Shown in pieces: positions 13,669-44,600 of a stretch of DNA of 64,000 nucleotides. The stretch is from assembly GCA_965178125.1 (NCBI GenBank), contig OZ237747.1:186001-250000 (forward strand). The letters are read 5' to 3'. The stretch's first letter is position 1. Each line of letters starts with the position of its first letter. The position numbers were made by a program, and so were the translations under genes. The stretch is from Bilabrum cf. latius (lineage: Eukaryota). Below the pieces are notes generated by a model. That model was not told where the DNA came from. It was given only the letters and a program-made list of their open reading frames with translations, and did not search any database.

Positions 13669-13699
<31 letters not shown>

Positions 13700-16600: not shown

Positions 16601-17397
16601 GACCACCATCGGGCTTGTCCCCGCCTGCAGTCGCATTCGCTGCACCCGCACCAACACCAACCAAACCCTCCTCCTTGCCCCCCGCCCCTGCCTCACCGCC
16701 GCCCCCGATCGCCGCCGCCCTCCTCCTCCTCGCCTCCATCTCTTTCTGCTCGGCATCCTGCTGGCGCAGCTCTCCGGCCCGCTACCGCTGCAGCTGCACC
16801 AGACGGTGAGCGGCCGCCTCCGTCTCAATCATCGCGCGGCGGGCCACAGCCGGGTCCGCGCTCCGCCTCGGGTACTGCCCCGAGTCCAGGAGCAGCTTTC
16901 CTTCCGTGTACCGGCGCGCCAGCCGAGCCGCATTCCCGCTCTCCAGTCTGTGCGCCAGCGACTTGTACAGCGAGGCACCCGCCTCCTCCTCCTCCGCCAT
17001 CCGCACCAGAGCCGCCGCCTCATTCGCCGCCCTCCTCGTGGCGTACTCGAGCACGCGGGGCTCCACCAGCTGCCCCCTCGCCGTCAGCGCCGCGCGGGTG
17101 GCTGCCACCGCCCTTGCCATGGCAGCCGCCTACATGGGCGTGGTCTGGGGGAGCAGAGTCTCGGCCGCGAGCGGGTCCAGCAAGGGCATGCCCAGAGCTT
17201 CCCGGTCTGAGATCGGAACAACAGCAGCAGCTGCAGAAGCAGTGCTGCCCCCTGGCCCTGAGTGCCCTGGCCCCCTCGCAGAGGCCCCCTTGGCCCTGCT
17301 TCCAGTGCTGGCGTCCATCAGGTCTAGCTGCTTCGACAGCGCACCCTCCGTGAGAGTCATGGCCTCCTCCTCCTCCTCATCGTCTTCTTCCTCGCCC

Positions 17398-17429
<32 letters not shown>

Positions 17430-18494: not shown

Positions 18495-18649
18495 GACTTC
18501 ATTGGCAGTGCCTCACAGTCCGTTCCAACCCAGCGCTGGTCCGTTTGGCGAACCCGTCCTGCCGAACGTTCCGTAGATGACTGCAAATCCGGAACAAGCT
18601 CCCGAAAATCATTGTGACGCCGATACGAGACTATATTCCCGAACTTAGC

Positions 18650-19665: not shown

Positions 19666-20016
19666 AGCACGTTTCGGCCCGGGCGCATGATAATGCTGCC
19701 GGTTCAAGTGATGGTGCGCAGAGCAGTGGCAGTATGGTAGCCCGTGCAGCTTCAAGTTGATGCCACGCCGGCGGTGCTGACGGTGCCTCATCAGTGATGA
19801 TGACGAGCTCTTTGCTGCTTGCTTCGAACTGGTTAGGCGTGCACTTGTTGCTGTCTTCGTTGGCGATTGTCTGCACAGAATTGCACTAAACTATCGTTTG
19901 AAACAAGTTGGTGCTCTACACAGGCTAGCTACTGCTGCTACCTGACAGTCTAGTCCCAAGTTGACGGGTGACGTGAGCTGCTGCAATGCCCGGCAAGAAG
20001 GGCGGCGATCAGAGCG

Positions 20017-22327: not shown

Positions 22328-22626
22328 GCCTCTGAGCCCGATGCCAGCAGTGATCGTCACCCCCCGCGGGCTCGTGCGGATGGCCAAGTGATTCACGGAA
22401 TAATTGATCATTGATCTTCAGGACTCGATTCAGTAGGCCTAATTCACCGCGTTTCCTTGCACTGGTTTGCCCAATGGCCCTGCGGCCGACAGACCGTCAG
22501 GCGCCGCACGCGTCCCATTAAGTGGGGCTCGTGGATCGGACCCAACGCATCCCGGATGCCAAGCAACAGTTTTTCATCATTGCACGACAAAGACAGGCGG
22601 CAGAAGAGGGATAGCTATCGCTGCCC

Positions 22627-24743
22627 TTACAGCTGCTGGGTGCTCCCGTCCCTGCCCGGGGACAGAGAGAGCTGGCTTGGTGGGCGGGACGAGGCGGGCA
22701 TCGTGCCCACGGCTCCCTGCGAATGCAGGTGGCCGCCCGGCGGCGCTCCCGGAGCGCACGCCACGGAGAAGCCTGAGCCATCTGAGCCAGAGGGCCCGGG
22801 GACCAGCTGTGCCGCGGTCAGCCCTTCGGACCCCAGGTGCAGCCCCAGCCTGTGCCCGTACCCGCTGGCATGGTGTGCCCCCAGCCCCACCATGGACTGC
22901 ATCGGCGCGGGGAAGGTGAGCCCGTCCAACTGTGGCACCCCTGTCCCGCCCTAGCCGATTCCCCTGAACATGGCCGCGGCGGATGATGAAGACGAGTTCA
23001 TGGAGGCAGAGGACGGGGATACCCTGAGTCCATTGAGCCCAGGGGCACTGCCAACCACGGCAGGCTGCCCCGACCCTGCTACTGCCCCCCTTCGCATCGG
23101 GTGCGACGGGAGTCCTTCCGGGGGGATTGATCCGGGCGAGTGCATGCCTCCGTGCGCCTGTTTCTGCGGGAGCAGCTGGCCGGTGCGCTGTCCCCTGCCA
23201 CTGCTCATTGCAAATGACCCGACGCTCTCCAGGCTTGGGCTCTGGTGGCCGTCCCCCGTCCACTTGAAACCGGCAGTGTCCATCAGCCCTGGCTGCAGCT
23301 GCACGGGCTGGCCGGCTGCGATCTGGGGAGGTCGTCCGTGCAAGCCATGCGCGGGCATCCCTCCGTTCCCGGATGCACCAAACGACAGTACAGCCGAAGA
23401 GCCTTGCGGCGGAACAGGTCCTACCGGTGAGCTCCCTCGACCTGCGTCTGGTAGCCGCACGGTGTGGCCGGACCACGCCTGCTATCTCGGATGCTCCCTC
23501 GCCATGGCTTGTACCCCTATCATCGGAGACGAATTGATGGATCCCGATGAACCAGTCTGCACCGAAGAAGGAGCGCCAGCTGAGCCTTGAGCGGAAGATA
23601 TGCCGGTTCTGGCCCGTAGCTGCCAAGAAGAGCCATCCTTCGGCGATAGCCCAGCTTGAAGGCCCTCCTCTTGGGAGCTAAGGCCGAGCGATGCTTGACT
23701 GCCCCCAGATGATGCGCCTGCCCGACCGTGTGCTGGTGGTGGAGCGCTTGCCGAAGGCAGATACTGCCCGCCGGATGATTGAGCTAGACCTGCCGTGCCA
23801 GCCGTCCCACGGAAGATCGGCTCCTTCGCGGCTGATGTCGGTCCAGTCGTACCCGTTGCCGCCGTCATTGGATGCTTCTGCATGTTTCCAGCATACGAGT
23901 TTCCGTGGCCGCTTGAATTTGCCCTGACGGATCGCATGATGCGTGCTGCAGCGCTGGCAAGATTCAACGGCGCTCCTGCGATCGACCTGTGCTCGACCGT
24001 CGAAAGCGGGCCATATCCGGCTGCTTCCATTTCTTCCTCGTCTGCATCACCGTCATCATCGTATAGTGTCAAGCTGTTCGGCCGAAACGACGCATCTGGT
24101 TCGAACAGAAGCCCCCGGGCGCTCTCGACGGTTCGCTCCATCAGCTAAGCCCGCAGCAGTGCATGCGGACTCTTCCCACCCGGTGGAGGCGGCGGATGCG
24201 AAAGTTCCTCGGCATACCTTGGCAAAACCATCTGTCCTACCACCTCACCAAGACCTCTATGCGGATACATGCACGCCGAGTCCAAGGTTGCTCGCAAGGC
24301 GTCTCTCTCGGCGGTCAAGCTTGCAACGAGCCTCTCCAGTCCCTTTATATAGCCGCGTTGTCGGCTTCGATGCAACTAAGCTGACCGTCTGTTGCGCTAC
24401 CTGCGATATGGCAACGAATTACCGCGCAGTACATGCCGAGATCTCAGTCAGCGGTGCGAACAGTCGAATGGACACAGATTCGAGCGCAGCTGGTACGGCA
24501 GGGGCGTGGCGCGGGACGGGAATCACACGCACCTTTTCTTATCCTAAGTTGAGTCATCGTGGTCTGCGGAGGGGCAAACAAAATACGCAGCAGACAGAAC
24601 ATGGTGAAGCCGGTCTAGTTGCCCTTCTCAGGAACACTTGCACAGTCGGCATTGATTCCACTGCAATCTACCACATTTCGCGGACATGCACCCGTCAACG
24701 CAGGAGACGAGCACTTACCTCCCTTTCTCTTTCTGGGAAGCAT
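22627..24743 (-). CDS. bZIP transcription factor with a long disordered C-terminal region; exons 24743-24719, 24563-24533 and 24400-22627
   Basis: Introns at 24564-24718 (gtaagt...cgcag) and 24401-24532 (gtgcgt...cgcag) give MLPRKRKGDHDDST[Q]DKKR[Q]RNRRSA[Q]LHRSRQRGYIKGLERLVASLTAERDALRATL, a basic region plus leucine zipper. Six TAGs. Ends at TAA 22627-22629. Confidence 0.8.
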
Positions 24744-25136
24744 AGAAGTCGCGAAGGTGCGAATTGCCAGCAATGCGTCAATGCCTCGGGGAAACGTGTG
24801 GTGCCAACGGAGCCAGGTCGAGTGGCAGCGGCGCCGCGCAACTGGAGCGGTCGCAACTGATCCCCTTGGTCGCATGGCTCAGCAGGTGCCAATCATTGCG
24901 AGAAAGAGCGCTCGGGAGCGCTGAATCTATTGATGGATGCTAGGAAAACATCTGTGATGACTGTTAGTCGCTTCGATAGGCTAGAAAAGAGCAAGCAGCG
25001 TGGGGTACTTCGCGACCGCCAGACGGACGTGGCTACGTACGTAGCGGGTGACTTAGCTGCAGCTTGCGGTCAAACAGGATCGTATGTCACCAAGTAACGC
25101 TAGATTCATATCTGGACCACTCAGCGCTATGCTACT

Positions 25137-28100
25137 TCAACCTATTGCCCCTCCATCATCCAATCTATCTTGCTCCGGCTTGGGCCTCTCCATCTGCACC
25201 AGGTCTGCTCGGCCGGCCTGCGCTCTAGCCCGTATCTGGGCCGCAGCTGCCTTTTCTTTCTCAATGCGACGCTGCTCCCGCACTTTTTGCCGCCGTACGA
25301 ACCGCACATCGGCCTCAGCCAGCGACTGTTCCGCTGCCAAAGACAGCCCGCCCGCTCCCGCCCCTCCCTCCCCCGCATGCTCGCCCTGCTGGCTCCCAGC
25401 CCGCACTCCGAGGCTGCCCCCGGGTCCCGTTCCCGCGGCATACAGCGTCCCTGCAGCCCCAATTGGCGTGTATCTCTTCCCGTCCCCCCTCCCCCCCCCG
25501 ATCCTGGCCCGCGCCCCCTGGAGCCCCATCACGGAGCTGCGCCTCTGGTACGCCCGCCCCGAGGGATCTCCCCCACGCAGCGAACGGCCCTGGCGCAGAG
25601 CTGCGAGCCCAGGCCCCGCAAGTCCGCTCACCGTCCCCACGTGCACAGAGCCCAGCCGCCCCCTCTCCAGGCCCCACCGCGGGCCCAAACCAGGCCCAGG
25701 CCCAGGCCCAGAAGTGGGCCCGCTCACGCCGCGAGCACCACACGAGCCGGCCCGGGCGAGCGGCTGCATCCCGATCAATGCACCGCTCCCGCCCGAAGGC
25801 ACGATCCTGTTCGGCTCACGGGCCGTGCGGGCCGCCGCAGGGGACCCCACTGACCCGCGGCGGGGCCGCACAGTGCTGCTGGCAGGGAACACACCGCCCG
25901 AGGCAACACCCTGCAGCTCCCCGCCGCCTGCACGGTCCACGCCACCGGCAGCATCCCCAGGGTCCAGTCCCCCGGGCAGGTGCGGGGGAGGGATGCGGCG
26001 CCGAGCCGAGGGGGGGGGAGGAGCGTCTGAGGCGCGCCGCGGCAGCGAGCCCGCTGTTCCAGCAAACCCCCCCGCTGCTGTTCCCTGGCTGCCGCTCCCG
26101 GCACTGAGTGCGAGGCCGTGCGTCCCGCTGGCTGCATCGAAGGTTCCTTCCTACTCTCCCTGCCCCCACTCCGCCCGCGCCAGAGCCGCAGCGGAGCCAT
26201 GGTCGTAGTCATGCTCACGGTCGTGGTCGTGGTCGTCCGCGTGCAGCTCGATGTCGCGCTCGCTACCCGCCGGGACTGACGCAGAGCCCCCTGCACCCAG
26301 CCCCACCGCGGCAGACAGTGATCCGCCCCCCTCCCTCCCGGATCCCACCGTGTGCATGGCCCCGTCCTCGGACTGTTCCCCGGCCGGGAGCTGCCGCTCG
26401 CCCATGATCCGATCCGCCCGTGCACGCCCCAGGCTCGCCTCAGAGTGGCGGTCGCTCAGGGAGCGCTGCACCGACCCGGAGCCGGAGCCCAGGCCCTCCG
26501 ACCGCGGGCTTGCACCGTCGTGCGATGCACCGTCCTCGTGGTCCACCATGCTTCCCTCTCGATCCGCGGTGCCTGCCTCGTCCCCCTCCTCCTCCTCCTC
26601 GTCCTCCTCCTCGTCATCGGCCTCTTGCACCGCGGCGGGCAAGCCCTTCCCATTGCCTGTACCCTGCCCATTCCCGGGCACTGCACCATCGTGCGGTGCA
26701 CCCTCTTGGAAGGAGCGGCGAGCGGCCGCCATGGCTTCAGCCGTGATGTTGTGCTTCCCGGACTCGACCCTGCGCACCTGCCCCTCCGAGTCGCTCACGG
26801 TGCGGCTGGACCTGTGTGCCCGCGCGACTCCCAGACCAGCGATGCCGACTGTCCCGATGCCCGCGCCCCCCTCGGCCCCAATCGGCCCTGGGATCGAAAT
26901 GGGCCCAGGGAGCTCCCCCCCCCCTGCCCCAGTCTCGGCCCCGCCCCTGAGCCCAGCAGCACCTCCACGCTCCAGGCCGTCACCGGCCCGGCCGATCTCA
27001 CGTACTCCCTCGGCTGCGCTGGCCCCGCCTCCGTCGCCCTCCTGCACCCCCGTGGCTCCCACCAGGGCAGTATCTACCGCAGACACTCCTTGTTCCCTCA
27101 GCTTTGCAGCCGCCGCGGCCTCTGCAGCCGTGCCCTGCCTCACCATGGAGCTCTCCGTGGACACCACGCTGGGGGCCCGTCCCCTCCGCACCGACGGCAG
27201 CTCCGTGGAGTCTGGGGGCGCCTCCGCGCCGGCTAGCCCCGGCCCCGGCCCCGGCTCCGGCCCCTGTTCTGACTCTGCTCCTGCGCTAGACTGCCGTGAG
27301 ACTGCGGAGATATCGCGCGCCATGTCCCTGAGGCTGCTCACGGGTGTCATCATCGCAGCCCCCTGATGCCCGTCGCTGGTGCTGCCCGTGGTCTGCCTGC
27401 CACCGAGCCCGGGCCCGTCCTCGCCACGCCCCGTCTAGGGCGCCTCTCCCTCCCCAGTGACCTCCTCCCCATCCACCTCCTCCCCAGTGACCTCCTCGTA
27501 GAAATCTGGATCCGCGAGCGTGTCCTTGTCTGGCAGCGCGGTGCCATGTCCCCCGTGACCTCCGGTGGACAGCCCGCCCGTGTCCATGCCATCTCCCAGC
27601 AACCCGCCCGACACGAGGTCCGTACCCGTACCCGTGCCGCGCGCCAGGTCCAGGTCCAGGTCCAGGTCTTCGCTAAAGTCCGTCCCCGGCTCCTCCCCAT
27701 GCATGTGTCTCATCGCGTCCTCGCCCTCGCCCCCGCCATGCACCCCTGCTTCGTCCTCCTCTCCCCGCTCCCGCTCCCTCTCCTCCTCATCGTCGTGCAC
27801 TAGCAGCGCCCCCACCTGCAGGTCCAGCTCGTCAGCACTCAGGGCCCGCCTCTCCCTCCCAGGGGCACTCGTCACAGAGCCCACCCCAGCCTCCGCGTGC
27901 AGGTCACCAGCCCTCAGCCCCGTCTCGGCTCCTGCTCCTGCTCCTGCTCCAGCCACAGGCTCCGCACCCAGCCCAAGCAACCCCTCACCCACACCACCGC
28001 TAAACAGCGGCCCTGAGTGCCGCCCGTCGTCCGACCTTGTCTCCAGCTTGTCCAGCTCATCTGCCCCCGGGGCCGGGCCCAGCAGCATGTCGGCTGCTTC

Positions 28101-30619
28101 CTGCGCGTCGCCTGCCGCCACCAGAGCAGCTGCAGCCGAGGCCAGCTGCGCGTCGCCCATGGCCTGTCCCTCGGCGAGGGCGCTGGCAGCCGCCGCGGTG
28201 GCCGCCACCGAAGTGATGGACCTGCGGCGGCCGGCTTTCCCTAGGCTTGGTGAGTTGTTGGCGCTCGCTGCGGCATGGGCATGAGGAGTATGAGCGCTCG
28301 CTTGGCCGGCCGAGATGGCTCGCTGCCTGCCGTTCAGGCTCTCCTCTGCGTCCCCTTGTTCCCCAGGGAACACATCAGACTCGTTCGCTGATCCCATTCG
28401 CTGCAGATCATTTCCAGTCGCGTTCCCTGCCTCTTCTGCCCCGATCGAGGCCTTGTCGTTGATGGTGCCCCCACCCCCACGGTTGGCGGCCTGCGTTTGC
28501 CCCTCGCCCTCGGTACCCACCACCGCACCCTGATTCTCGTTGCGCGACGCCGTGGCCTCAGCAGCCGCGGCAGCCGCATTGCTGGCCGCCGTCGCCTCAG
28601 CCACCTCCGCCTCCAGTACCGCCACGGCCTCGGGCGAGTGGAAGCCCACGCCCCGCGCGGGGCAGAAGTTGAGCGCCCCCGGCTCCCCTTGCGGGGCAGA
28701 CTCTACCCCGGCGGCGTGCGCCACGCCCTCGGGGGCACCCAGCGCGCCCCGCTTGCCGGTCTGGTGCCCGAATCGGTTGAAGAGAACCACCGCGAACGTG
28801 ATGTTGTCCTTTGTAGCGTGCACTTGCAGCGTGGTGGTGATGAGACCCTCCACGCAATCGGCCACGCTCACTCGCCTGAGGAGCTGCTTCTTGACTTCGT
28901 TGATCAGGTTTTGCCGGCTCGGGAACTTGTCGAAGATTCCATCGCTGCCCATGATCAGGAACTCTACCTGGTCGTCGAGGTGCACGCAGCGCACGTGCGG
29001 GTCGGGGATGAGTCCCCCCTTGATGTCTTTCTTGATGAACCGACCCCCTATGTTGCGGCTGACTGCCAGGAGGCCGCCCACCCTAGGCGTGGGGTCTCCT
29101 TTCTTGCGGCGGACCGTCCCCCCCGCCGCGCGGATGCGCTTCATCTCCGAGGGGTCTTCCGCCTTGTGCTAGTAGGTCAGCTCCACGGCTTTGCCCCCCT
29201 TGCACAGCCAGGCCTCGCAGTCCCCCACATTAGCCACGAGGAGGCAGTCGCCGATCACCAGCGCGGTCACCACGCAGGACCCCGCGGCGTCTGGGATGTG
29301 CGCGGGCATGTTCAGCACTCGCTAGTCGATCGCATGGTACACGTCCCGCATGGCCGCAGGCAGGTTTCGGGGAACAACGCGAAGGTACCGCCGGTGGCCC
29401 TGGGGAAGCCCCGTCCTCGCCCTCGCCCTGCCCCTGCCGGCAGCTCCCCTCCTCCTCCTCTGCATCGACATCCCGCCCGCGCTCGAGCCCGCCCCGCTCA
29501 CATCCGCAGTCCCACCCCCCGCCCCCGCCCCCGCGTGGTGAGGATGATGATGGCGCCCGTCCTGCGCCATTGCAGCCCGTCGCATGGCAGCCATGGAGCC
29601 CGCGCTGGGCCCCCGCGATGCGCGCGAGAGCCCCCTGCCGGTGCGGCGGCCCAGCGCGAAGGAGCTGGCTCGGCCGGACCCAAGGCTCCGCATGGATCGC
29701 CTGCCCTCGGATCTGCCCCCGACGCTGCTCGCTTCCTCGTTCTGGGCGTTGCTCGGAACGGCTGCTGCATGGGGTCCTGTCACTGGGTTGCTCTGCGAAA
29801 CATCCGCCTTGAAGCTATTGTTTGTGTCTGCCTGCTGGGATGCTGCAGCAGTCGCCGCCAGAGCGAGCATCTTGGCACGTCGGAGGTTCGCCATCCAGTC
29901 CCTGCCCGCGGCTACCGAAGCGACGTGCTCTTCCTCAGACCGAATGACGGAAATCTAATCGAGAATGGCTTGGAGCATGCTGTCCTTCAGATACGTCGAT
30001 ACTTCGTCGCCGCCGTGGCCATCGTACACCGCAAACGCAGCGCACCTGTTGTCGTTGCCGAAAATGCTGCGAATATGCGCTTTGTCTTCGTCATACGAAG
30101 GAGCTCCGCGCTCAGCACGGCCATAAGCAATGATACCCAGCATGCGGTTGGCTTGGCCCCCATTCCCAGCTTCGATGCGGTCCGGTAACGCGTCGGTAAT
30201 TACTGGATATAGCAGCTCCTCTTGCTTGTCCCCGGTCATGCCTTGCGCTTGCTCCTCTACTTCCTAGAAAAGCTGGGCAGTTCGCACGCGAGCTGCTCTG
30301 GAGCGCCCGCCAGTTTTCCTTGACGCGACAACAGCTGCCCTGCGCACCGCCGCATCGGTGTCGGTCCGCGAATCAGACCCACCTACGAGGTGTGGGAGGC
30401 ACAGTGGGCAGAACAGGTAGTCTCATACAATAGGTAATAGAACAAAGCATACAATTTACAGGCCGCTTGGATTGAATCAGCGCGTTGGTGTGTAATCGGA
30501 ACAACCAGCGCGGCGTCCGCAGCGCCTCATCAGGGCATCAAGCATTGATTGAAACACATACCTGACTAGTCATGTCGATTTTCACTGGGTAGTGGCGATT
30601 TTGAGCTGCAGCAGCCCAT
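25137..30619 (-). CDS. PP2C/PPM protein phosphatase with an N-terminal acylation motif and long low-complexity insert and tail, about 1,767 aa; exons 30619-30562 and 30382-25137
   Basis: Motifs: YDEDK, FAVYDGHGG, AGSCVVTALV, VANVGDCEA, EMKRIRAAGG, RVGGLLAVSRNIG, FLIMGSDGIFD and KDNIT. Exon 1 MGCCSSKSPLPSENRHD[Q]S joins in phase via the intron at 30383-30561 (gtatgt...cgtag). Seven TAGs. TGA stop. Confidence 0.85.
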
Positions 30620-30871
30620 TTGGTGTTGCGCAAGTATTCTAATTTGGCAACCGGTGCATCTAGCAGCAGAATGTCTTCATCTTCACGCCATGCGACGAGG
30701 CTGGCATGAGGACGTAGATGTCGAACAGACGCGCCTAGGCTGACTGTGACGTGATGAATGTTGTATATCCAACCCGCAATGCAGCCCTGGAGCTCAAGTA
30801 TTGGCATTTGCGAGTGCCAGTGGGCCAAGTAATAAAGCGGTGGCCCCCCGCGCATAGATAGCCCGGGCGAC

Positions 30872-31442
30872 ATGCAGCTACCAGTGCCGTCGGTTCGTCG
30901 AGCGGGCAGGTGACTTTGCGGCACGCATCATGACCCCAGCACAGGCCCACGTGGGCGGAGCCTGCGATGACGCTAGCGTGTTGGACACATTGGCGTGCTT
31001 GCTGGCATGCAGACATGGACGGTCCCGATGGTTGAAAATGATCCAGTTGGTGGTGCACTTCGCCTGCAGGTCTTTCCTCGGGCAGAGCATCCTCGGGACT
31101 GGTCTGTCCGGAGCCGGCAGCTTCATGGCAATCGCGGCGGACGCCTTGACCCACCCCGGCTAGGCCATGGGGGACGAGCCCTGCGAGATCATGATGCAAC
31201 CGTTCAGACGGTGGACTGGGACGGCAAGCCAGGATACGGCCTGGAGGTCCCTCCCAAGGGAGCACGGGGCGCGCAAGTGGCTATATTGGCTGAGAGTGGC
31301 TGAGCACGGCTGTGCTGGAAAGGATGAGACTGGGGGGGGCATGCACCTGGAGGAGTGCAGGGATGATTTGGCGGGAGTGTTGGCTCCAGCCATCGGATCG
31401 TGCCACTCGTCAGGAAGCACTGGCCCAGTATCGTGCAGATGA
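30872..31442 (+). CDS. Candidate small hypothetical protein; exons 30872-30909 and 31070-31442
   Basis: A putative intron at 30910-31069 (gtgact...tgcag) joins MQLPVPSVRRAGR to a high-GC3 frame, SFLGQSILGTGLSGAGSFMAIAADALTHPG[TAG]AMGDEPCE..., ending in TGA. No recognisable family. Confidence 0.35.
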
Positions 31443-31804
31443 TTCAGCGCCCCAGGCTTGGGGGTTCTGGTAAGCAGTGGGGGGGTGGGGGGGGGCAGGG
31501 GTAAGTGGGGAATGGTGGATGCTTGGGATCCACATTGCCACAAGTACCTGATGTTGTATAATATACTACGCGCATGGTGCATGTGCTGGTGCACCAACCA
31601 ATGCAAAGCAAGCAGCAAGCTCTTGCCGTGCCGCGTCATCATCCGGAATCATCCGGGAGACACGGGCAAGGCCACGTCCCTACCAGCTCACACAATACTC
31701 GATCAAATATGCTCCGCAGAGTAGCGAAACCAATACATGCACTGCTTAAATCATCGTTTGCACGTGCATCGGGCCGATAGCAGCTTGGTTAGCTTCATAG
31801 GTCC

Positions 31805-32961
31805 ATGTCGGCAGATGTGCAGCTGACAGCTGGAGCCACGGTCGATGTAACTCCCAAGGGAAGAGATGGGTTCATGGGTGCCGTAGGAAATACTCCACTT
31901 ATTAAATTGTAGGCTATCAGTGAAGCTACTGGCTGCACTGTGCTCGGCAAAGCCGAGCTTTTGAACCCTGGCGGATCTGTAAAGGATCGAGCAGCTTTGG
32001 GACTAATTTTGGACGCTGAAGAGCGTGGTTAGCTAAAGCCAGGGGGAACCGTGGTTGAAGGTACTGCTGGTGAGATTCGGAGCAATTCTGCTCGCGTGTG
32101 CAGTCCTCAGTTGGCACTGAATCGATGTGAAAACAATGATGCCCAACACTCGATCTCGCAGGGAATACCGGGCTAGGACTTGTCCACATTTGCAACGCAC
32201 TTGGTTACAGGTGTGTTATTTACATGCCAAACACCCAAAGCAAGGAGAAAATCGAGCTGCTTCGCATGCTTGGTGCAGAGGTGCGCCCTGTTCCGGCGGT
32301 GCCATTCTCAGACCCCGAAAACTACAACCACCAGGCCCAGAGATTTGCCGAGGAAACCGAGAATGCCGTGTGGACCAACTAGTTTGATAACACAGCAAAC
32401 CGTAGGATCCATGAGGTCACCACTGGGCCCGAGATCTGGGAGCAGACCCAGGGCAAGATTGACGCGTTCACGTGCGCCACAGGCACGGGCGGAACCCTCG
32501 CAGGAACCGCCCGCTACCTCAAGTCCCAGAGCAAGGACGTGAAGATTTTCCTGGCAGACCCCCCGGGGAGCGTGCTTTACTCGTGGGTGCGCAGCGGGGG
32601 GGAGGAGATGGAGCGCGGAGGCTCCTCGGTGACCGAGGGCATCGGGCAGGGCAGGGTCACGGACAACCTGGCGGGCACCGAGCTGGACGGCGCGGTGCAG
32701 ATCCACGACGAGCGGAGCATTGCTATGGTGTACACGTTGCTAAAGAACGAGGGCCTCTTCCTCGGGAGCAGCAGCGCGCTCAACTGCGTAGCGGCGCACG
32801 ACGTGGCAAAGGAGCTGGGGCCGGGACACACGGTCGTCACCATCCTGTGCGACGGGGCCTCGAGATACCAGAGCAGGCTCTTCTCCAAGTCTTGGCTCGA
32901 GTCCAAGGGGCTCTACGAGGCCGTGCCCGAGGATTGCAGGCACCTAGTGTCGCTCGAGTGA
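31805..32961 (+). CDS. cysK: Cysteine synthase (O-acylserine sulfhydrylase, CysK family); exons 31805-32069 and 32162-32961
   Basis: Motifs: [25 protein letters not shown] (PLP Lys), VEGTA|GNTG across the intron at 32070-32161, WTN[TAG][31 protein letters not shown] and [15 protein letters not shown] at 31910, 32030 and 32380. Confidence 0.95.
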
Positions 32962-33343
32962 GTGAGAGCTGAGCGCATAATGGTAGACGGCGGCAGGCTG
33001 CCAGAATCGGCCGCTCGATGAACGGCTCTGCACCCAGTTTTTTTTTTTGGAAAAGGCGCCATACTACTCTTCGGTGTTGCGCGCGCATCACAAGATTAAA
33101 TGACTGGTTGCGCTGTGTGCTATGTTAGTCGGTTCTACGAGTGTTTTCCGCGCACCGGCTCAAGTCACCGGAGACGCCGCAGCAAAAAGAACGATGCCAA
33201 CATCCACCACATGGGTAGGTTGCTCCAATTTCCTTCACCCCGCGCGGCCACAATACACTCGCCGACAAGTCCTGCCCAAAATATTTCAACCAGCGCTCTG
33301 CCCAGCCCGTGCCAAGCCGACCGCAACAGCTCTGTCAGGCTGC

Positions 33344-34410
33344 TTACTGGGCCTTCTTGCCCTTCTTCTCGCGCAGCTTGCGCAGGTAGAACTCGAGCTC
33401 CTTACCCTCAAGGATGTAGCCATCAGCGCGGCCGCACTGCCCGGGGCGGCTGGTGATCTTGGCGAGGATGCGTCCCTTGACCAGCTGGTCCTCGATAGCC
33501 TCGTCGAGCTTGCCCTTGGACAGAGCCTCCTTCATGCGCTCGTTCACGTACGCCTCACGGAGCTTGCCATCCTTGATTGCTACCTCGGCCTCCGCCGTCA
33601 TCTCCTTACCAGCAGAGCCGGCCTTGACCTTGAAGTGCGACTCGTACCACTTGCGGAAGGGCACGGCATCGATCTCCACGATCTCACCCTTCACGAGAGT
33701 CTTCGTGCGCACAAGCTCGTTGTTCGACGAGTTGTATACCACATCGTTGATCTTAGCGGCACGAGTGATGGCTGCGACAAAGACACAACGGCAGCAGGGA
33801 AACAAGGCCAAGAGTGGGCTGGTGTATCTTGGGGAGAGCTCCATAAACCGTGCAAAAATACCTAATGAGCAGCAGCTACCAAGCATTAATGTGGCAATCT
33901 GAGATAGGCAGGCAGTGGTGGCAGGAAGTGCGATACTCTAAGCTCACTGAAACCACCCCAGCTGTAGTTGCCGGTCTCCAGGCGGAGGGCGCGGCGCTTG
34001 GTGTTGCCACCACGGCACCTGACCAGCGTGATCCTCTTGTCAGAAGCAATCCTAGTGTTGGCAGGCACGCGTCCAGTCTCGTACTTGCGCTTCTTGATGT
34101 GCTGCGCACGGCGACCACCAGTGTGGCGGCGCTTGTGCCGGCTGTCCCGGGTGATGGCTGCGAAAATGGTACAGAAACGGTATGACATGCCGCCAATATC
34201 GGTACAATGCATGTACGCTTTTTCAGGAGCGAAGGACATTCTCAGGGGTGCACAGCGACAAGCACAATCCCAGGCAAGCTAGTGCAATCACGAAATACTG
34301 GTGACAGATGCGAACCGAAGCAAGCCAGCGAGCCCTCCGGCTTTCCTATTCATCATAATCACTATAATAAACAAGTGATACAGGATAACAATCCTCTACG
34401 CCTCACCCAT
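33344..34410 (-). CDS. RPS8: 40S ribosomal protein S8 (eS8); exons 34410-34407, 34157-33948 and 33771-33344
   Basis: [88 protein letters not shown]. Introns at 34158-34406 and 33772-33947. No TAG. Ends at TAA. Confidence 0.96.
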
Positions 34411-34573
34411 GATACAAACCGACGATTCCTATAATGACTGGGTGTGGCGGATCGGATTAAAGTCAGACTTGACGGAACATGCACGCTACTGGTTGGCCGC
34501 ATAAATTCGAGAACCGCACCTTGCTTGCCGTAGCTTTAAATACCGTCGGCGTTAAATACTAGTAATTGTAGCA

Positions 34574-36290
34574 ATGGAAGGTGCCAAACGACTGAAGTAC
34601 AGGAAATTAGGAGGAAAGCTCAGACCTGCAGCTGCCTCAAGCACCGCAGAGCACGCAGATCCATGGGGTGTACCATCTTCGGCGCCAGTAACCGCGCACT
34701 CGCCCGCTAGTGTCGCAGTGGCATCCGGTACTGGAGCCCCAGATGCTGAAGTATCATCGCTTCGCGCTAGAGCAAGTGATGCGGAGGCAAAGGCGTCAGC
34801 TCTGCAGGGCCAAGTCGCGAAACTGCGTAGCGAAATCAAAGAGGCCAATGCCCAGGCTGAGCAGGCGAAGAGAGCAGCGTCGGAAGCATAGCATGCAAAG
34901 GCTGGTATTGTGGAGACAAAAGAGGACGATGTGGAGCTCAGGCGCTCCTAGGATGAAATACGAGCGTTGCAAGAACAGGTGGAGGCTGCAAAGGCGCTGG
35001 CAGGCGAAAGCCAGCAGCGGGCTGAGCGTGCCGAGCGAGATGCCGCCAGCCATAAAGCTGCAAAGGAGTAGGCTGATAGCGAGCTTGCAGTGATTGGAAA
35101 GCAGGCGGAAGAGATGGCAAAGCAAGGCACCCGAGCTACCGAAGTGAGGCGAGCACAGATGCCCGAAGTGGCCTGTTTGTAACGCGAGCACCTCAGCTTA
35201 GCCAATGAGCCTCACACATGATCACTACTTTTACTATTCGCAGGAGGTCAAGCAAGAAGTGGCTAGGCTCGAAGGCGCTTTGGCGGACGCACGAGCGGCT
35301 GCAGAGGCGGCTCAAGCAGATGCTCAGGCGCTTCGAGACGCTTCCCAGTCCAAGGATGAGCAGCTGAAAGAAGCGCAGGATGCGGCACAGAGTTTGTCAA
35401 AGTCTGTTCGCGCCGTTGAGCAGGCGAAAGCCAGGGCCGAGCAGGACTCGGAGGCGGCGCGCGCCTCGCAGGCAGCCGCCGAAGCCCAGGCCCAGAAACT
35501 CAGGGAACAGGGCGAGGGGGCCCAGGAGGAAATCCGCAAGGCTCAGGCCTCCGCCGCCGAGGCCAGGGCAGCCGCGGACACGGCCCGCTCCGCCGCTGAG
35601 GCCGCTGAGAAACGGGCCGCCAAGGCCGAGACGGACGCCAGGGAGGCCCGAAGGGGCCAGGATGACGCGGCCCGGGCGCGGGGGGACGCGAGCAAGGCGC
35701 TGCAGGCCGCTAAAGACGAGGCCGCCGCCCTGCGGACCGAGTTGAGCGAGTCCAGGGCCTCTCTCGCCCGGCTGGAGGGGCGTGCCTCCAAGGAGGGGGG
35801 CAAGGCCAAGGAGGCAGCGGAGGAGGCCGCGGGGGCCGTGGCGCAGGCCGCCAAGCTGAGGGACGAGGTTGCCACGCTGCGGGCGCGAGCGGAGCAGGCG
35901 GAGCGGGCCCGCGGTGACGCGGAGGAGAAGGAGGGGATGGCCAGGGACCTGCACCGCAAGGCGATGATCGAGGCGGATGAGCTCAGGGAACAATTGAGGG
36001 CCGCGCAGGAGGGCGGGGCGGGAGCGGGAGCGGGGCCTAGCCCGGGCCTCAAGCGGCGCCAGTCCCGCCGCGGCGGGGGCGCCATGCGGCAGGAGGCCCA
36101 GAAGCAGAAGCAGGAGAGCGAGGAGGAGGGGAGCAGGGAGGGAGCCCGGGCCAAGGAAGCCGCGGGCGAGGGGGCTAAGCAGAGGGGCGAGGGACAGGGC
36201 GGCTTCGGAGTGGCCACCTTGCTGATAGTGGCTTTGCTTGCGCTGCTTGCCGGCGCAGGTGGGGCGATCGCAACGGGGGCGGGGTGCTGA
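34574..36290 (+). CDS. Coiled-coil protein with a C-terminal transmembrane anchor; exons 34574-35143 and 35244-36290
   Basis: An Ala/Glu/Lys-rich heptad protein is read through 3 TAGs. The intron at 35144-35243 runs gtgagg...cgcag. The C-terminus is GFGVATLLIVALLALLAGAGGAIATGAGC followed by TGA. Confidence 0.7.
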
Positions 36291-36581
36291 TGGAGGGCTC
36301 GTCGACTGACGTGTGACATCAGTTTGTGGGGTTTTGCTGACAAGTGGCTGCTGGATCTCATGCTTGAGATTGGGCCATCAAGCTCCTGATACGTTGCCGC
36401 TACAGATTTTGTAAGAAAATAAGATCAGGCCTTGAGCTTGTCCCGGCGGCCCGGGGGCGCGACAGACAAATAGATTGTTCCGGTTAGTAGGATCGGGGTG
36501 ACGCCCCCTTTTTGCAGGACCCGTGGCACTCTGAAGTGCTTTGATTAACCGTCAAAACATTGCCACTGACCGCTAATTATT

Positions 36582-38345
36582 ATGTACGGGAAACTATCTG
36601 ATGTATCCTTGAGATCTATGCGTCGAGGAGCTGCGCTGCGATGGGCAATGCGCAAGAGCTGCGCGCACCATCTTGGTCACTACGCCAGCCGGTCAGCGTC
36701 AGGCTCTGCTGCCGCATCACAGCTCGGGCAAGAGCCTATGGCTCGCAGTATCCACGCAGAAGGTACTCAAACTAATTTAACATGGAAAGCTGGACGTGTT
36801 GCCTCTCCGATTGCGCTCTCAAAGAACCCGATAGGGTCGCGACAGCCAAGAAGCAACTTGAGCACCAGACGCAGCTCTTCTTCTGCCGTATCGTCAAAGT
36901 CCAAGCCTGTGGGAGCGTAGCGTAATGTACTACGAAGCGCGTATAACCGCAGTGAGCCCTACATTGTCCGTTCTAATCCCAGCTGGGAACCAGAAGGTGA
37001 GCCTGCCCACGAGGGCAGCGTGAGGCTCGATTCTGAGGCACGAGGGCGCCGGCGGTCCGGCTCTCGGGCGAGCGACGAGAAACGAAAAGCGATGTTGTCA
37101 CCTATCAGGACGCAGGCGCTGGCATCCGCCTCTCGGCCGCGGCGCAGCTCTCGCATGGAGCACGCCGCCTCGAGGCAGCAGCACGTTCTCGTGGCGGAAG
37201 ACTTCGACACGACATTCGGGGGCCGGCTCAAGGAGGTGCGCGCCAGCTGGGAGCAGTGGGGAGACCCCAGCCTGCCCCCCTCTCGCACCATCGTGGTGTT
37301 CCCGTCGTTCTCCCACGGGCCGCACATGGCGGCCAACCGGGACGACCCCAGCCCGGGGTGGTGGGACTCCATGGTGGGGCCGGGCCGGTACATCGACACC
37401 AATCGATTCCGGGTCATCTGCCCGAGCATACTGGGGTCACCCTACGGGTCCACCTCCCCGACGAGCATGGACCCGGAATCGGGCAAGCAGCTCCGCATGG
37501 ACTTCCCGTCCATCACCCCCGCAGACCAGGCGAGGGCTCACGCCCTGCTGCTGGACCAGCTGGGCCTGGATCGGGTGCACGCAGTGATCGGGGCCTCCCT
37601 CGGAGGCATGCAGGCCATGCAGTACGCATCGTTGTTCCCTGACCGGCTGGACCGGCTTGGCGTCCTCGTGTCCACCCCCAAGACCACCCCCGGGTCCGTG
37701 GCCCTCCGCCGCATCTAGCGGCAGGCCATCGTGTCTGACCCCGCCTGGAAGCGGGGCAACTACGCCGACGAGGCGGACAAGCAGGCAGCCCGAGGGCCGG
37801 TCAGCGGGCTGCGGATCGCAAGGGAACTGGGCATGGTGGCCTACCGCTCTAGGGAGGAGCTTGACGCGAGGTTCGACTGGCGCGCGAGCAGCGACCAGGT
37901 CCGACCCACCGACCTGACCTTCGACGTGGAGAGCTACCTGAACTACCAGGGGGCCAAGTTCGCGAACGGGTCGTTCGACGCGAACGCGTACCTCATCCTG
38001 AGCAAGTGCATGGACCTGATGGATCTGGCGAATCCCTACGTGCAGCCGGGGCGCACACTCGCCGATGCGGCCCGGTCCATCCGAGCCAAGAGCCTGTTCG
38101 TGGGAGTGAAGCAGGACACGCTCACCCCCGCCGCTGAGATGGAGGCACTGGCTGGCATGATGCGGGCGGACGGCAGGCCTCGGGGTGACGCCAGGTTCGT
38201 TGAGCTGGACTCGTGGTACGGCCACGACGCCTTCTTGAAGGAGTTCGACCGGATGGGGCCTCTGCTGCAGGAGCACCTTGAGCAGGGGGTGGAAGAGGCG
38301 CTGAGGAGGGAGGAGGTGCACACCACGGGGCTGAGTCTGCCGTGA
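36582..38345 (+). CDS. MetX/Cys2-family homoserine or serine O-acyltransferase (alpha/beta hydrolase) with a putative mitochondrial presequence
   Basis: Motifs: PGWWDSMVGPGRYIDTNRFRVIC, LGSPYGSTSP, FPSITPADQARA, nucleophile IGASLGGMQA, ALRRI[TAG]RQAIVSDPAWKRGNY, ARELGMVAYRS, VESYLNYQGAKF..FDANAY and YGHDAFL. TAG at 36918 and 37716. Confidence 0.9.
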
Positions 38346-38569
38346 GTAGATCTAGACTCTAGGGGATGGTCGCAGTGCAGTGCACACTGCCATCCTGATG
38401 ACTGCCTGACCTGACCATCCTTGCCTTCGGCCCTAGGAGTGCGGCTTACGTGCTTGCTTTTCAAAGTTATGCTTCTGCGCAATTCATATGGCATGCAGAT
38501 TATCTTCAACCACCCCAGTACGCAAGTCAATCGGGCCACACCCGTGTCGTGCCCTGCGCTGCTGGATGC

Positions 38570-38590
38570 TGCATGCATGCATGCATGCAT
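38570..38590. repeat. (ATGC)n self-complementary intergenic repeat
   Basis: tgcatgcatgcatgcatgcat lies between the MetX-family and UBR genes. A shorter copy is at 8879-8892. Confidence 0.85.
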
Positions 38591-38688
38591 CGCTCGTCAC
38601 ACTGGTTGAGCGCTTGGCGATCGTCCACGCGACCAAGAACATGTACTATTTCGGAGGGTGCTGATCAATTTGGTTCGCAAATCCTGGT

Positions 38689-41600
38689 ATGGATCAAAGA
38701 CAGGATCGTACGTCTACTGTGTAGGCAGCCTTAGATGCAGATTCCAGCGGAAAACTGCGTGCATAGCTCGACACATACGTGAGCGGATCGAGACGGCCAG
38801 AGCGCGTATACGCAGAGGCAGCCCAAAGCTCCGAAGCAGCCAAAAAGGTGTGCGGGTACGTGTTTAAGGACGGCGATTTCGCGTACTACTCGAAAGCGTA
38901 TGCGGCCGATGGAACTTGCATCATTTGCTAGAACTGCTTTGAACCAGAGTTGCACAAGGGCACGGAATACGTGCGGTACCGCACAGCAGCGGGTGGCGTG
39001 TGTGATATTGGTGATGCTGAAGCTATTGATCCTGTGTGCTGGCCTAAGCGATTCCGTGACGCCCTGGAAGGCAAATCCGTCGACCCAACCACGCTGCTGG
39101 ATGCTCCGTTGCGATCTCGAGCCAGCGAGGCGATCAATAAAGCCGTTGAGGGAATTTGCGCGGCCGCTTTGAGTTTACGGTCTTCATATTAGAATGCTGA
39201 TGACCTAGACTCCCTGCTGACCGAGGCACCTGGTCCTAGAGCTGCTGAGGAGCCTGGGGCGGCCAAGGGGTCCAAACCGAGCGCTTCGCCAGGAATGAGG
39301 CTCCGCAGCGGGCGACTGGTCAAGGCAGAGGTCGGTGCCGGTGTTGGCGCCAACTCCAGATCGAGCTCAGCCAGTCACGCCGCTGGTAGCTCCGGTCCGG
39401 CCCCTGCAGTGCCCGAGGGTGCCGCTGAATCGGACCAAAGCGATGTGGAGGAAGAGGAGGAGGAGGCAGAAGACGGCGATGGCTCCGCGGACTAGATGGC
39501 AGAGCACATGATGGCGATGCTGCAGGGGCAGGGAATGGACCCCGAACAGGCCGCTGCCCTGGTGCAGCAGCTGAACGCGGGAGCGGGAGGTGGCGGGCTG
39601 TTCGGGGCAGGGCTGCCTGGGCTCCTGGCGAGTAGTGATGGCGAAGAGGGCGGGGACGAGGAAGATGGAATTGACGTTGAAGACCATAACGACGAGGATG
39701 AAGACGAGGCGGACGACGACGAGGTAGTCGGCGCGGGGGCAACCCCGGGGCAGGGCGGTTTCGCTGGCACGCTCATGTCCTGGCTCGGCCAGGCGATCCC
39801 AGGCGCGGGGGCAGCCGGGGGAACCTCGGGCCGCGCATAGGCTGGCAGCGGTGCAGGCGCAGAGAGACGGAAGAAGAAGAAGATGTAGAAGAGGAAAGCT
39901 CCCATCGAGGAGACTGGGGACGGGTCGCTGCCGCAGTATTCAGTGGTGCTGCACGACGACGACTGGCACACGTACGACCAGGTGCAGGCCGCGTTCCGCA
40001 GGCTAGGCATACAAGATCTGGAGGCAGGCCGCCTGACCATGGCAGTGGACCAGGAAGGAGACGTCGAGGTGGTCAAAGGGGCCGCTGGATCCAAGGCGGT
40101 ACGGAGGGCTGTGAGGGTGCTGTCCACGGAGACTAGGCTCATCACCAGCGTGGAGTCGCAGGAGACTCGCGCGATGGTCCGCAGGGCAGGATGGCTCTGC
40201 GCCTGGGTGCACCAGATGGCACAGAGGGGGGAGGGGCTCCTGGAGCTCGTCGCCAGGGCGCTCGCCGCTCCAGTGAGCCCCGGCGCCATGGATGCCGCCG
40301 GCACCAGCCCCGCAGCTCTGCCTCTCGACTGCAGGGAGGCGTGTTCCAGGAGCGCCTTGGAGCTGCTGCTGGGCCTGGACCCGCTGCTGACGAGGGTCGT
40401 GCGGGACCAGCTGCACAAGGTGTACACGCTGGGGTTCAGGCGGGATTCCTTCCGAGAGGCATTCACGGCGGGGTATGCGCGCGCGTGTCCGAGCCTCTTG
40501 CAGCGGTGGTGCCTGGGCCTGGGCACCAAGAAGAGCACCGTGCTCGACCTCACCGTGCAGGTGCTCACCGCGCCCTCGCTAGTGGTGCGGCATGCCCTGA
40601 AGGCGGGCGGCGTGGGGCCAGGCAGAGTCGAGGCGGTGGGCGGTGCGGGCAGCGGGGCGGGCGCGGACGCAGGTGACGGGCCAGCAGATCAGCAGGCCGA
40701 GGACTCGGGGCTGATCGGGGCCCTGGCCCGAGCTGCAGGGGAGGGTGTGGTGGCTGCGGCCGTGCCCGTGGGTCACGAGCCGATCTATTTGCGCGACGGG
40801 AAGCGCAAGGCGGGTGGCCGAGGGGGGGGCGGCCACATCGAGGGACCCTCGGCGGCGGGAGTTCTCGTCGGCGAGCTGGACCTCATTCGGATGGGCGTGG
40901 GCACCAAGCGAGGCAGCCCAGGCAAGGCCCACCAAAGGGAGCTGGGCCCCAGGCCAGTGCCCCTGACAGAGGGAACCATGGGCGTGAGGCTGCCCCGCTG
41001 CGTGGGGATCGACATGAACCACGTGACCGTGGTGCACCAGCGGTTCATGCAGGTGATCAACCAGCTAGAGTACGTGGCCCGGGTGCCTGGCGCGGCCCTC
41101 CGAGTGCTGGGCACGCCCGCGGTGGCCGAGTCCATGCTGCGTGGGCTCTCCGTCACGCAGGGCATGGACCCGAAGACCAAGGTCAAGGGGGCCGCCATGG
41201 TGTTCCCTCCCGTCTCATGGGCGGTCGCACTGGACACGGCCCTGCGGACGTGCTCCCAGTGGGACCAGATCGTGGGGCTCGCTTGCCACGATGCAGACGA
41301 GTGCCTGCGGAGGGCCGGCGTCGGTCTCGCGAGCCACGGCGAGGGGGCGGGCGAGGAGGCCAAAGAGGGGTAGGCGGCCCAGGTGTTCCCCCCGTCGCCA
41401 TGGCCCCTGGTGCAGAGCGCTATCGCCACGTCGATGGGCGCGCTGAGGGAACGGTGCCTGCTCGCCGGGACGTACGGGGCGCTGCACCCGACGACTAGGG
41501 CGAGGGTGGCTGCCTCGAGGGAAGACAAGACCGCCGCGGGGGGACGCGAAGGGCACGCCGTCACTGGTGCTAGCACCTTCAAGGACATCGCCTGGGCCAC

Positions 41601-44600
41601 TGCCCCGGCCTTTCAGGACGAACTGCGGTCGAAGCCTTCGCCAGACTCGCCTGAAGCTGCGGTCCAGACTCTGGCGCTGGCTGCTTCGGATGACCTTGCG
41701 GCGCTGCGCATCGGATATCGCTCCGTGGGTAGCAGGGTCCCGGCGGTCTTTGCGCCGCGACCTGCTGGCTCAGAGGGCCGCCCAGCCTCCTCGGGCTCCT
41801 CGGGAGCCTGCTCCGTGCAGCTTCTGGCTGCCGCCCCCGTCAGCGAGGATCGGGCCGTCTCGATTCACTACCCGCTGCATCGCGCTGCTGCGGTGACCTT
41901 CTCCAGGATGTCGCAATCGGTGGGCGTCGCCGTGTCTCGGGCCGGAGAAGCCGCTGATGGAGTGTAGAGAGACTTGCTGACGGAGTGGCTGCTGGCTGCT
42001 TCGGGTGAGTCGAGCGGCTCCAGCGTCGCAGTGCCAGCCTTGCGGTGCGCCGCTGCGGGCGGAAGCGGCGGTGGCGCGACGTCTTTGGAGCAATCAGGCA
42101 AGCTTGTAGTTCCGCTGGATGCGGAGCATGCCTTGCAGTCCAGGGCGGGCACAGCCGCGGGGCTGGTGCAAGGCCCCTTAGAGGCGATCGTGTTCGCGTC
42201 GCGCGCCTCGAGGGGGCAGTGGGTGAGGAACGGGTCCCTGGACGGAGAGCTGCTGAACTACTTCACGAGGCCGGTGCGGGAGAGTTTCTTCGCCATGGAC
42301 GTGCGCTGCCTGCAAGTGGGCGCGCTGCTTGCGGGCGGAGACGCGCTGGTCGGCCACGTGCTGAACGCGTTCGGGGTGGCTGCATTCGCGCTCGACGAGC
42401 CTTCGAAGGAAGCCGATGCTGCCAGCAGGGAGAGGCACGACCGGGCACGTGACCGCACCGATGTGCCCCCGGCAGAGTGTGACGAGCTCGCCGAGGCCCT
42501 GCGGATCCTGTGCACAGCAGCGTCTCAGCTCCCCGTGGTGGGGCATCCCAGCGATGCCGCGGTGGCGGTTTCCGAGGAGCAGGCCGCTGCATCCGGTGCA
42601 AGCGCCGCAGCCACCGAAGGGGTCTCGTCTGCGCTGGCGCTGGCGTCTGCCGGCGCAGGCGCGGAAGAGAGCAAGATGGACGACGCGGGGGAGCAAGAGA
42701 GCAAGATGGCTGACGAAGTGCTTGGGGAAGGGGAAGATGCCCAGGGCGGGGAGCACCTCGGTGGCAGGACCAGGGTCCAGGAGCACTACCGCTCGGGGGC
42801 CCCTGATCTGGGAGTTGCTCTGCGCACCATGGGGCTGGCGGCAGATGCCGTGGGGTACGTGCGGGATAGCGACGGGCAGCAGTCGCTGGTGCCCCGTGCC
42901 GCTTCTTTGGAACACGACACAGATAGGTGGTGCGCTGCTACCGGCGCAGCGCCGCCCGCCGCCTCCGGCCCTGCGAGGTGGGACTAGCGGAGAGCCGGCA
43001 TCCTTGCCACCCTGCGGCAGGCCTTTATCCACCTCCTGTCACAGGGCCCCAAGCCCCGATCAGCCGTGGACAAAGTGGCAGCGAGGGTGTTCACGTCCAT
43101 GCGGCGCACCCCGGAGAGGGATGTTAACGTGTGCCTGAATGCAGTGGCCGTCTACCGACCTCCCACAGCCAAAGAGCCGGGGTAGTACTCTTTGCGACCC
43201 GAGTGCTGGCTGCTGTACGACCGCTGTTCCCTCACGCTGCAGCAAAGGTCGGATCGGAACGAGGCCGAGCACGCGTACGAGGAGCAGAGGGAGGCCATAC
43301 GGTCGAAGCTGCAGGTGTGGGGCACGGGCAAGGGAGACGGAGGCTAGAAGCAGAAGGCAAGCAAGCACGTTACAATAAGCCAGCTGCTGCGGTACAGCGT
43401 GCCGCCCGCCGCACCACTGCCCCCCACCACGCCCGGGTTCGCGCCGGTGCGGCAGCTGCTGCACTCGACTCTCTTCGCGCAGACGTGCCGTGGAGTGCTT
43501 GCGGACGCGGTGCAGGGCCTGGAGCACCGAGTTACGGCGGACGGGCTGCGTTGGGCCCTGCACGGTCTATGTCTCGCGGCGATGGCCTGGCCTGAGCAAC
43601 GGCGGCGGGAGGCCTGGGAGGAGGAGAACCAGAGGCAAGAGGAGGCACGCGAGGCGGCCGCGGTGGCAGCACCGGAGGAGAAGGCAAAGGAGGAGAAGAA
43701 GTCCAAGAAAGAGAAGAAAATCAAGAAAGACAAGAAGGAGAAGAAAGACAAGAAGGAGAAGAAGTCCAAGAAGGACAAAAAGAGCCGGAAGAAGGCCTCG
43801 GCAGGTGGCAGATCTCCGTCAGATATGCGGCGATTGCTGCCCGCCCCAGAGCCCGTCCAGCTATTTTACGGGCAAATCGACTCGAACGCGTCGATGGCCT
43901 AGTTAGATGCCTTCATTGCAGCCGTCTGCACCCGTCCGCAGGAAAGTGAGGGGACAAGCGACAGCGCCCGGCTCGACGCATCCATTCTGTCGCTGCTGGT
44001 CGACCTGGTCAAGGGAGAGGTCGTGCTGCCCGGCGGTGCCGGTGATGCAAAGGATGATGCAAAGGATGCTGGTGGTGGCAAGGGTGCTTCTGACGCGACT
44101 GCAATTGCCCTGGCAACGACTGAGACACGCGAGAGTGCTGGGTGGCTCCTTCGCGCCCTCCCGGCGCTGCACCCCCGCCTCAAACAGGCGGTAGATGCCG
44201 CGCTGCGGAAGGGGGGCGCCATGGATGCAGAGGCCGCCGAGCAGAGACGGCTGCAGGAGCGGCAGGCGGCAGATGCCCGCCGGCGCGCGGCACAGGAGAG
44301 GGCCATGCGGCAGTTCGCTGCCAGGCAGAGCGCCTTCCTTGGCCGCATGTCGACGACGGGCGCGGCCAGCGGGGCAGGGTCTTCCAGCAGCGATGCGGCG
44401 GTTGGTCTTGAGGGCCTCCCCAAGCTGGGGTCATCTGCCCGGCGGGCCAGCACCGATGCAGACCAAGCCGGGTACGAGGGCGGGATGGGCGTGGGCGGGC
44501 AACAGCCGCATGTTGCGAGGGGTGGCGTGTGGGCGGCTGCCGTTGCCCAAGGCGCTGCTCTGGTCCAACGCAGGGCCCAGGTGGAGCTGAACCACGCAGA

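Follow-up and report, generated by a model that had tools for sequence, protein, structure and literature searches.

The stretch of DNA analysed here, called the window throughout, spans 64,000 bases with a G+C content of 63.6% and has the gene content of a eukaryotic nuclear genome. It encodes ribosomal protein eS8 (RPS8), with GT..AG introns, together with the SUMO-activating enzyme UBA2, a UBR1/PRT6-like ligase, a PP2C phosphatase, a hybrid histidine kinase, a bZIP protein, cysteine synthase and homoserine O-acetyltransferase (MetX) (Table 1). The 3,202-codon and 3,947-codon frames (8907-18512, minus strand, and 38665-50505, plus strand) abound in low-complexity runs of Ala, Gly and Ser and are uninterrupted, whereas RPS8 and cysteine synthase carry introns. 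A second source of comparison was L001, a metagenome contig of 4,191 bases and 56% G+C that holds RPS8, cysteine synthase and PP2C; order and orientations of the three genes are conserved between positions 25137-34410 of the window and 1-4191 of L001, and the two RPS8 proteins are 94% identical. No tRNA gene was found in the 64-kb window or in the 4,191 bases of L001, and an Rfam scan of the window at the gathering score returned no RNA family; the window does not contain an eRF1 gene either.

Table 1. Reading frames, stop-like triplets and RPS8 gene parts of the window (positions count from its first base).
Feature	Position	Strand	Details
UBA2 (SUMO-activating enzyme subunit 2)	2429-4627	+	3 TAG, 0 TAA, TGA end
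3,202-codon frame, no Pfam family	8907-18512	-	23 TAG, 0 TAA, TGA end
Intronic TAA of FBO_C-domain gene	20528-20530	+	Intron 20527-20629, joint 20526>20630, GT..AG, X5
TAA probably ending the bZIP-domain gene	22627-22629	-	Codon score drop; bZIP_1 match
PP2C phosphatase frame, 1,762 codons	25137-30422	-	6 TAG, 0 TAA, TGA end; ortholog partly on L001
In-frame TAG at an invariant Gln of cysteine synthase	32380-32382	+	Q in 120/120 homologs; TAG in L001 too
Cysteine synthase stop, TGA	32959-32961	+	Orthologous L001 stop is TAA; homolog ends
RPS8 3' untranslated region, ~220 bases	33125-33343	-	X6 contig reaches 33125, 0 other letters
GCA GCC TGA, two non-conserved codons and in-frame TGA (possible back-up stop), 3' UTR	33335-33343	-	L001 has ATT TGC TGA
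TAA ending the RPS8 (eS8) frame	33344-33346	-	Kept in L001; homolog ends
RPS8 exon 3, stop included	33344-33771	-	Joint 33771>33948 (CT..AC on +), X6 contig depth 714
RPS8 exon 2	33948-34157	-	X6 contig covers 33948-34158; splice sites in sequence
RPS8 exon 1 (ATG G), inferred	34407-34410	-	ATGG then GTGAGG; no contig piece among those listed
Intronic TAA of coiled-coil gene	35180-35182	+	Intron 35144-35243, joint 35143>35244, GT..AG, X5 and X6
UBR1/PRT6-like E3 ligase frame, 3,947 codons	38665-50505	+	17 TAG, 0 TAA, TGA end; Pfam matches
882-codon frame, no Pfam family	51319-53964	+	Good codon score, in-frame TAG
Hybrid histidine kinase frame, 1,434 codons	54154-58455	-	15 TAG, 0 TAA, TGA end
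1,014-codon frame, no Pfam family	59620-62661	+	Good codon score, in-frame TAG

TAG is a frequent sense codon in the window. When all three standard stops are counted, the longest frame has 923 codons; when TAG is read through, frames of 3,947, 3,202, 1,762, 1,434 and 1,014 codons appear, and their lengths are unchanged if TGA is the sole stop counted. Several of these long TAG-containing frames harbor Pfam domains, and in-frame TAG lies inside such domains. Seven frames bounded by TGA contain 73 in-frame TAG per 13,041 codons, and the corresponding number for 21 coding segments is 104 per 18,340 codons, distributed across nearly all genes of the window. None of the 19 gene ends considered below requires TAG. 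The fate of the codon after splicing was followed in contigs of two sequencing runs, X5 and X6, which are labelled 'RNA?' (X5 also 'probably DNA'); none of the runs listed for the window is recorded as RNA. Both were treated here as transcript-derived because GT..AG introns are cleanly removed from their contigs and the depth is very uneven. Four introns (20527-20629, 32069-32160, 33772-33947 and 35144-35243) are cleanly absent. Of the 27 in-frame TAG between positions 20001 and 40000, 22 fall within the contig pieces listed for X5 and X6, with no other letters, and the TAG at 32380-32382 in cysteine synthase likewise falls within spliced contigs of both runs with no other letters. Since TAG is retained unchanged in spliced contigs, it is neither intronic nor edited away. 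The summed depth over RPS8 (33341-34007) is 6,508 in X5 and 617 in X6 and exceeds that of neighboring genes by factors of tens to hundreds, in keeping with strong expression of a ribosomal protein gene and with transcript-derived runs.

TAA behaves differently from TAG. An earlier note on this DNA had reported that coding sequence is free of in-frame TAA, and both of our counts, over 13,041 and over 18,340 codons, returned zero. The count over the seven frames is the non-circular one, as its bounds are set by TGA alone. It yielded 73 TAG and 0 TAA, and the remaining five frames over this DNA contain 103 TAA per 65,212 codon positions; from this rate 20.6 TAA are expected in the seven frames if TAA is unconstrained. 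If TAA:TAG follows CAA:CAG (90:445), the expectation is 14.8. Internal TGA could not show in these frame counts because the frames were defined by TGA. The 21 coding segments (55,021 bases) contain 104 TAG, 0 TAA, 603 CAG and 148 CAA, against an expectation of 25.5 TAA (Poisson P(0) ~8e-12); this count is partly circular because a TAA, or an intron containing one, delimits four of the 21 segments, and a rare sense TAA is compatible with 18,340 codons. In a flank test, stop triplets with 50 codons of flank on either side were scored for coding-like sequence. Coding-like sequence was present on both flanks of 18 out of 809 TAG, of 0 out of 308 TAA and of 0 out of 1,416 TGA. TAA is not rare everywhere: counting both strands, 125 occur in the 8,979 bases that the 21 segments leave uncovered. 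The earlier note had also named internal TAA at conserved Gln columns elsewhere in the genome, or a tRNA with anticodon UUA, as observations that would make this the ordinary table-6 code; within the window, the coding frames counted contain no TAA. Four further TAA triplets were considered as gene ends and rejected: TAA 35180 and TAA 20528 are intronic in spliced contigs, and TAA 25095 (plus strand) and 60878 (minus strand) have weak scores and belong to no gene.

TGA is the usual stop in the window. Our check of 19 genes, five of which are modelled solely from an open frame and codon score, gave 17 ends at TGA, 2 at TAA and 0 at TAG, reproducing the tally reported before, with UGA as the main terminator (17/19) and UAA as a minor one (2/19). 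The TGA end of UBA2 matches the C-terminus of P0241, a close relative's protein, and the TGA end of cysteine synthase matches the ends of its homologs. Cysteine synthase terminates with ...HLVSLE-TGA in the window at the very column at which L001 has ...HLVSLE-TAA, and 119 of 120 homologs end at this stop column; in L001, the next in-frame TGA follows 13 codons further. Such an exchange of TGA and TAA at a conserved orthologous stop is as expected of two synonymous stop codons. For the bZIP gene, the previously proposed end at TAA 22627-22629 held up in part: the TAA is present and the codon score, positive before it, falls to -15 in the following 60 codons, with the next TGA 60 codons on, but no homolog fixes the C-terminus. 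At the end of the histidine-kinase frame (54154-54168, minus strand), the sequence reads ...LM-TAG-VS-TGA, with TAG three codons ahead of TGA.

The second TAA end is that of RPS8. On the minus strand, positions 33346 to 33335 read TAA GCA GCC TGA immediately after ...EKKGKKAQ, in agreement with the ...KKGKKAQ-TAA end described earlier, and the last exon was placed at 33344-33771 because an X6 contig joins 33771 to 33948. Homologs recorded under the Pfam family PF01201 were compared using a query of 142 residues, of which the first is wrong (the start lies one base inside the intron) while the frame is right. Of 120 homologs, 110 end at the Q or up to 4 residues before it, 9 end 1-3 residues later and 1 ends 16 later; 3 are long enough for the read-through tail. 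Such lengths agree with termination at TAA without settling it. The RPS8 of the aphelid Paraphelidium (P0136) and P0126 end with ...AAQ at the same column. Comparison with L001 is decisive: the last exon matches at 376 of 426 bases (88%) with no gap and with TAA kept, beyond which the alignment collapses to 48 matches per 100 bases with gaps and then to 43 per 100. Between this TAA and the following TGA, the window reads GCA GCC and L001 reads ATT TGC. The caveat attached to the original claim, namely that a TGA after two further codons leaves RPS8 alone unable to prove a TAA stop, is resolved because L001 keeps the TAA, conservation ends there and the intervening codons differ. Judged by these alignments, both the window and the related species have TAA where conserved proteins end. 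The in-frame TGA that follows the RPS8 TAA two codons later is itself common to the window (33335-33337, minus strand) and L001 (737-739); it may represent a conserved back-up stop or be a matter of chance.

The amino acid encoded by TAG was addressed by comparison with homologs and with orthologous codons. Both the window and L001 use in-frame TAG, and one site common to both is the invariant Gln of cysteine synthase. At orthologous codons of window and L001, TAG stands opposite TAG twice, and the pairs CAG/TAG and CAA/TAG are also found; the L001 TAG opposite a window CAG falls in EGIGQGRV. At one of the TAG sites of UBA2, the protein of the close relative P0241 carries Q, and the best solved homolog of MetX has Q at the position of the MetX TAG. 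Other sites give a mixed picture. Of 120 homologs, 42 have L, 34 have M and 3 have Q at one UBA2 TAG column, and 54 have D and 16 have E at a second one. The PP2C TAG at 29169-29171 (minus strand), in ...TY-TAG-HKA, aligns with the Asp of the DHKP motif in all three alignments listed with solved homologs and is found in both species (near 4186 in L001); the motif would read QHKA if TAG is Gln. Further window TAG codons face CAC, GAG, GCC, GGG, TCT and GCA in L001. The UBA2 and PP2C sites leave the amino acid unsettled because their columns vary or hold D. As far as the alignments tell, the non-Gln matches of TAG sit in variable columns, one invariant column fits Gln alone, and TAG stands for Gln.

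Two other accounts of the in-frame TAG were weighed against this reading. The codon might not be reassigned at all, with its occurrences stemming from pseudogenes, unspliced introns, RNA editing or assembly errors. We found no support for such an artefact and consider its probability negligible, given 104 in-frame TAG over nearly all genes, their retention in spliced transcript contigs with no differences and the conservation of two of them as TAG in a second species; the spliced contigs and the L001 conservation rule it out within the window. Alternatively, UAG could encode an amino acid other than glutamine, such as Leu, Glu or Asp. The Asp of solved homologs at one PP2C site, the Leu or Met of 76 out of 120 homologs at one UBA2 site and the GAG or CAC that L001 places opposite two window TAG codons point in this direction. 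However, at the sole invariant column, that of cysteine synthase, all 120 homologs have Gln, the sense codons facing TAG at well-conserved orthologous sites are CAG and CAA, P0241 has Q, and the remaining sites are variable columns, which makes a meaning other than glutamine highly improbable.

The stop function of UAA can be questioned in two ways as well. Under the ordinary UAR=Gln code (NCBI table 6), TAA would also be glutamine and merely rare from GC-richness. The genome is indeed GC-rich with A-ending codons in the minority (CAA 148 versus CAG 603), and a TGA follows the RPS8 TAA two codons on. Yet even with the codon bias taken into account, the 104 TAR codons should include 25.5 TAA, and none is seen (P ~1e-10 to 1e-11). 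Moreover, TAA is placed exactly at the conserved C-termini of RPS8 and of L001 cysteine synthase, and it swaps with TGA at an orthologous stop. No in-frame UAA was found in the coding sequence of the window; table 6 is disfavored, and we regard it as very unlikely. It is also conceivable that UAA is unassigned or has two meanings, being avoided in coding sequence and terminating poorly or only in context, while a nearby TGA does the work. The use of TAA at just 2 of 19 gene ends and the downstream RPS8 TGA shared by window and L001 would fit such a scenario. Against it, the first in-frame TGA beyond the TAA of L001 cysteine synthase lies 13 codons on, and the RPS8 codons between TAA and TGA are not conserved; we consider an ambiguous UAA unlikely.

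Several relatives of the source organism are present in public data. The UBA2 of P0241 is 91% identical to that of the window over the aligned part (86% in the alignment given by the search), and the runs X8 (labelled algae metagenome) and X10 contain contigs diverged by ~5-10% from the window across positions 20001-40000. One X8 contig has an aligned piece that stops three bases past the TGA (22330) of the FBO_C gene. A UBA2 search of genome contigs and viral contigs revealed no further relative. All UBA2 matches with a readable organism name are stramenopile, with an identity of just 33-39%; they comprise ~30 oomycete entries, Pelagophyceae sp., Hondaea, Tribonema and Mucochytrium. Matches of cysteine synthase are a mixture of oomycetes and fungi, and those of RPS8, the 94% identical relative aside, are uninformative on placement. 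Going by the names of the best matches, the organism is probably a stramenopile. Amoeboaphelidium was considered as the source and rejected, as the G+C content of 63.6% compares with ~40% in Amoeboaphelidium genomes according to Table 1 of PMC10608142, and as close named matches are lacking.

Taken together, the window very likely represents nuclear DNA of a GC-rich eukaryote, probably a stramenopile, whose cytoplasmic ribosomes read UAG as Gln and terminate at UAA and UGA. The zero in-frame TAA and the TAA at the ends of RPS8 and of L001 cysteine synthase sustain the central proposal of the earlier note, that UAA stays a stop and is uncoupled from UAG. We take this code (UAG=Gln; UAA and UGA stop) to be NCBI table 15. 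By analogy with such codes elsewhere, UAG would be read by a tRNA-Gln with the anticodon CUA, whose C34 would pair solely with G, so that UAA would not be read, and eRF1 would have lost recognition of UAG while retaining UAA and UGA. The argument for a CUA tRNA-Gln that reads UAG alone is made in the discussion of PMC11687900, and an eRF1 no longer recognizing UAG forms part of the background given in the accessible sections of PMC5304391.

As far as the accessible parts of PMC5304391 and PMC11687900 go, UAG and UAA usually move together and splits between them are limited to a handful of lineages, consistent with what had been claimed before. UAR=Gln codes occur in many ciliates, hexamitin diplomonads, some ulvophytes, Streblomastix and Amoeboaphelidium protococcarum (PMC5304391, PMC11687900, same parts); these lineages share UAG=Gln with the window but also use UAA for Gln, whereas the window has no in-frame TAA. 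The closest likeness is to the fornicate Iotanema spirale, in the nuclear code of which UAG is Gln and UAA and UGA are stops, with no in-frame UAA and with both UAA and UGA at gene ends (PMC5304391, portion consulted). In Iotanema, however, UAA is the predominant terminator, as opposed to 17 UGA and 2 UAA among the 19 gene ends of the window, and the window further differs in that its best named matches are stramenopiles and the genome is GC-rich. The ciliates Hartmannula sinica, Trochilia petrani and Protocruzia tuzeti likewise decode UAG alone as Gln and retain UAA as a stop (PMC11687900, accessible text). According to the same text, UAA ends 86.9-98.3% of the genes in phyllopharyngean ciliates with UAG=Gln only, which is argued to lock UAA as a stop. 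This argument is inapplicable to the window, where UAA is a minor stop. By best matches, the organism is not a ciliate. Other exceptions named in the parts of PMC5304391 and PMC11687900 at hand are the rhizarian exLh with UAG=Leu and, from PMC11687900, Scotinosphaera with UAG=Ser, Protocruzia and several phyllopharyngean ciliates. exLh and Scotinosphaera resemble the window in that UAG is uncoupled and UAA and UGA stay stops; they differ in the amino acid, since the invariant column of the window is Gln. Code 15 of crAss-like and Lak phages has the same assignments as the window (TAG=Gln, TAA and TGA stops) and involves a phage-encoded suppressor tRNA, but it is a system of bacterial viruses, and the window belongs to a eukaryotic nuclear genome with spliceosomal introns.

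The code as such is already known from other lineages, and what is apparently new is the lineage, along with an unusual balance of stop codons. Our literature search, which covered main texts and a minor share of subscription journals, found no report of a variant nuclear code, UAG-only or any other, in a stramenopile. We tentatively propose, at slightly less than even chances, that this is the first departure from the standard nuclear code in a stramenopile-affiliated lineage, that UAG=Gln arose in a GC-rich, UGA-dominated genome and that at least three related taxa (L001, P0241 and X8/X10) are publicly available. Nuclear code changes are rare and splits of UAG and UAA rarer, and each of them tests the tie between the two codons via tRNA wobble and eRF1. 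The UAA-lock explanation is not sufficient here, because UAA ends ~1 gene in 10 and yet stays a stop. If this proposal holds, the uncoupling of UAG and UAA would not require UAA to be fixed as the dominant stop, and the lineage could represent an early or intermediate stage of stop-codon capture. The choice of code also matters for annotation. Table 6 would extend genes of the RPS8 type beyond their ends, and standard-code annotation of this genome and its relatives truncates proteins at every TAG; the P0241 protein begins in the middle of UBA2.
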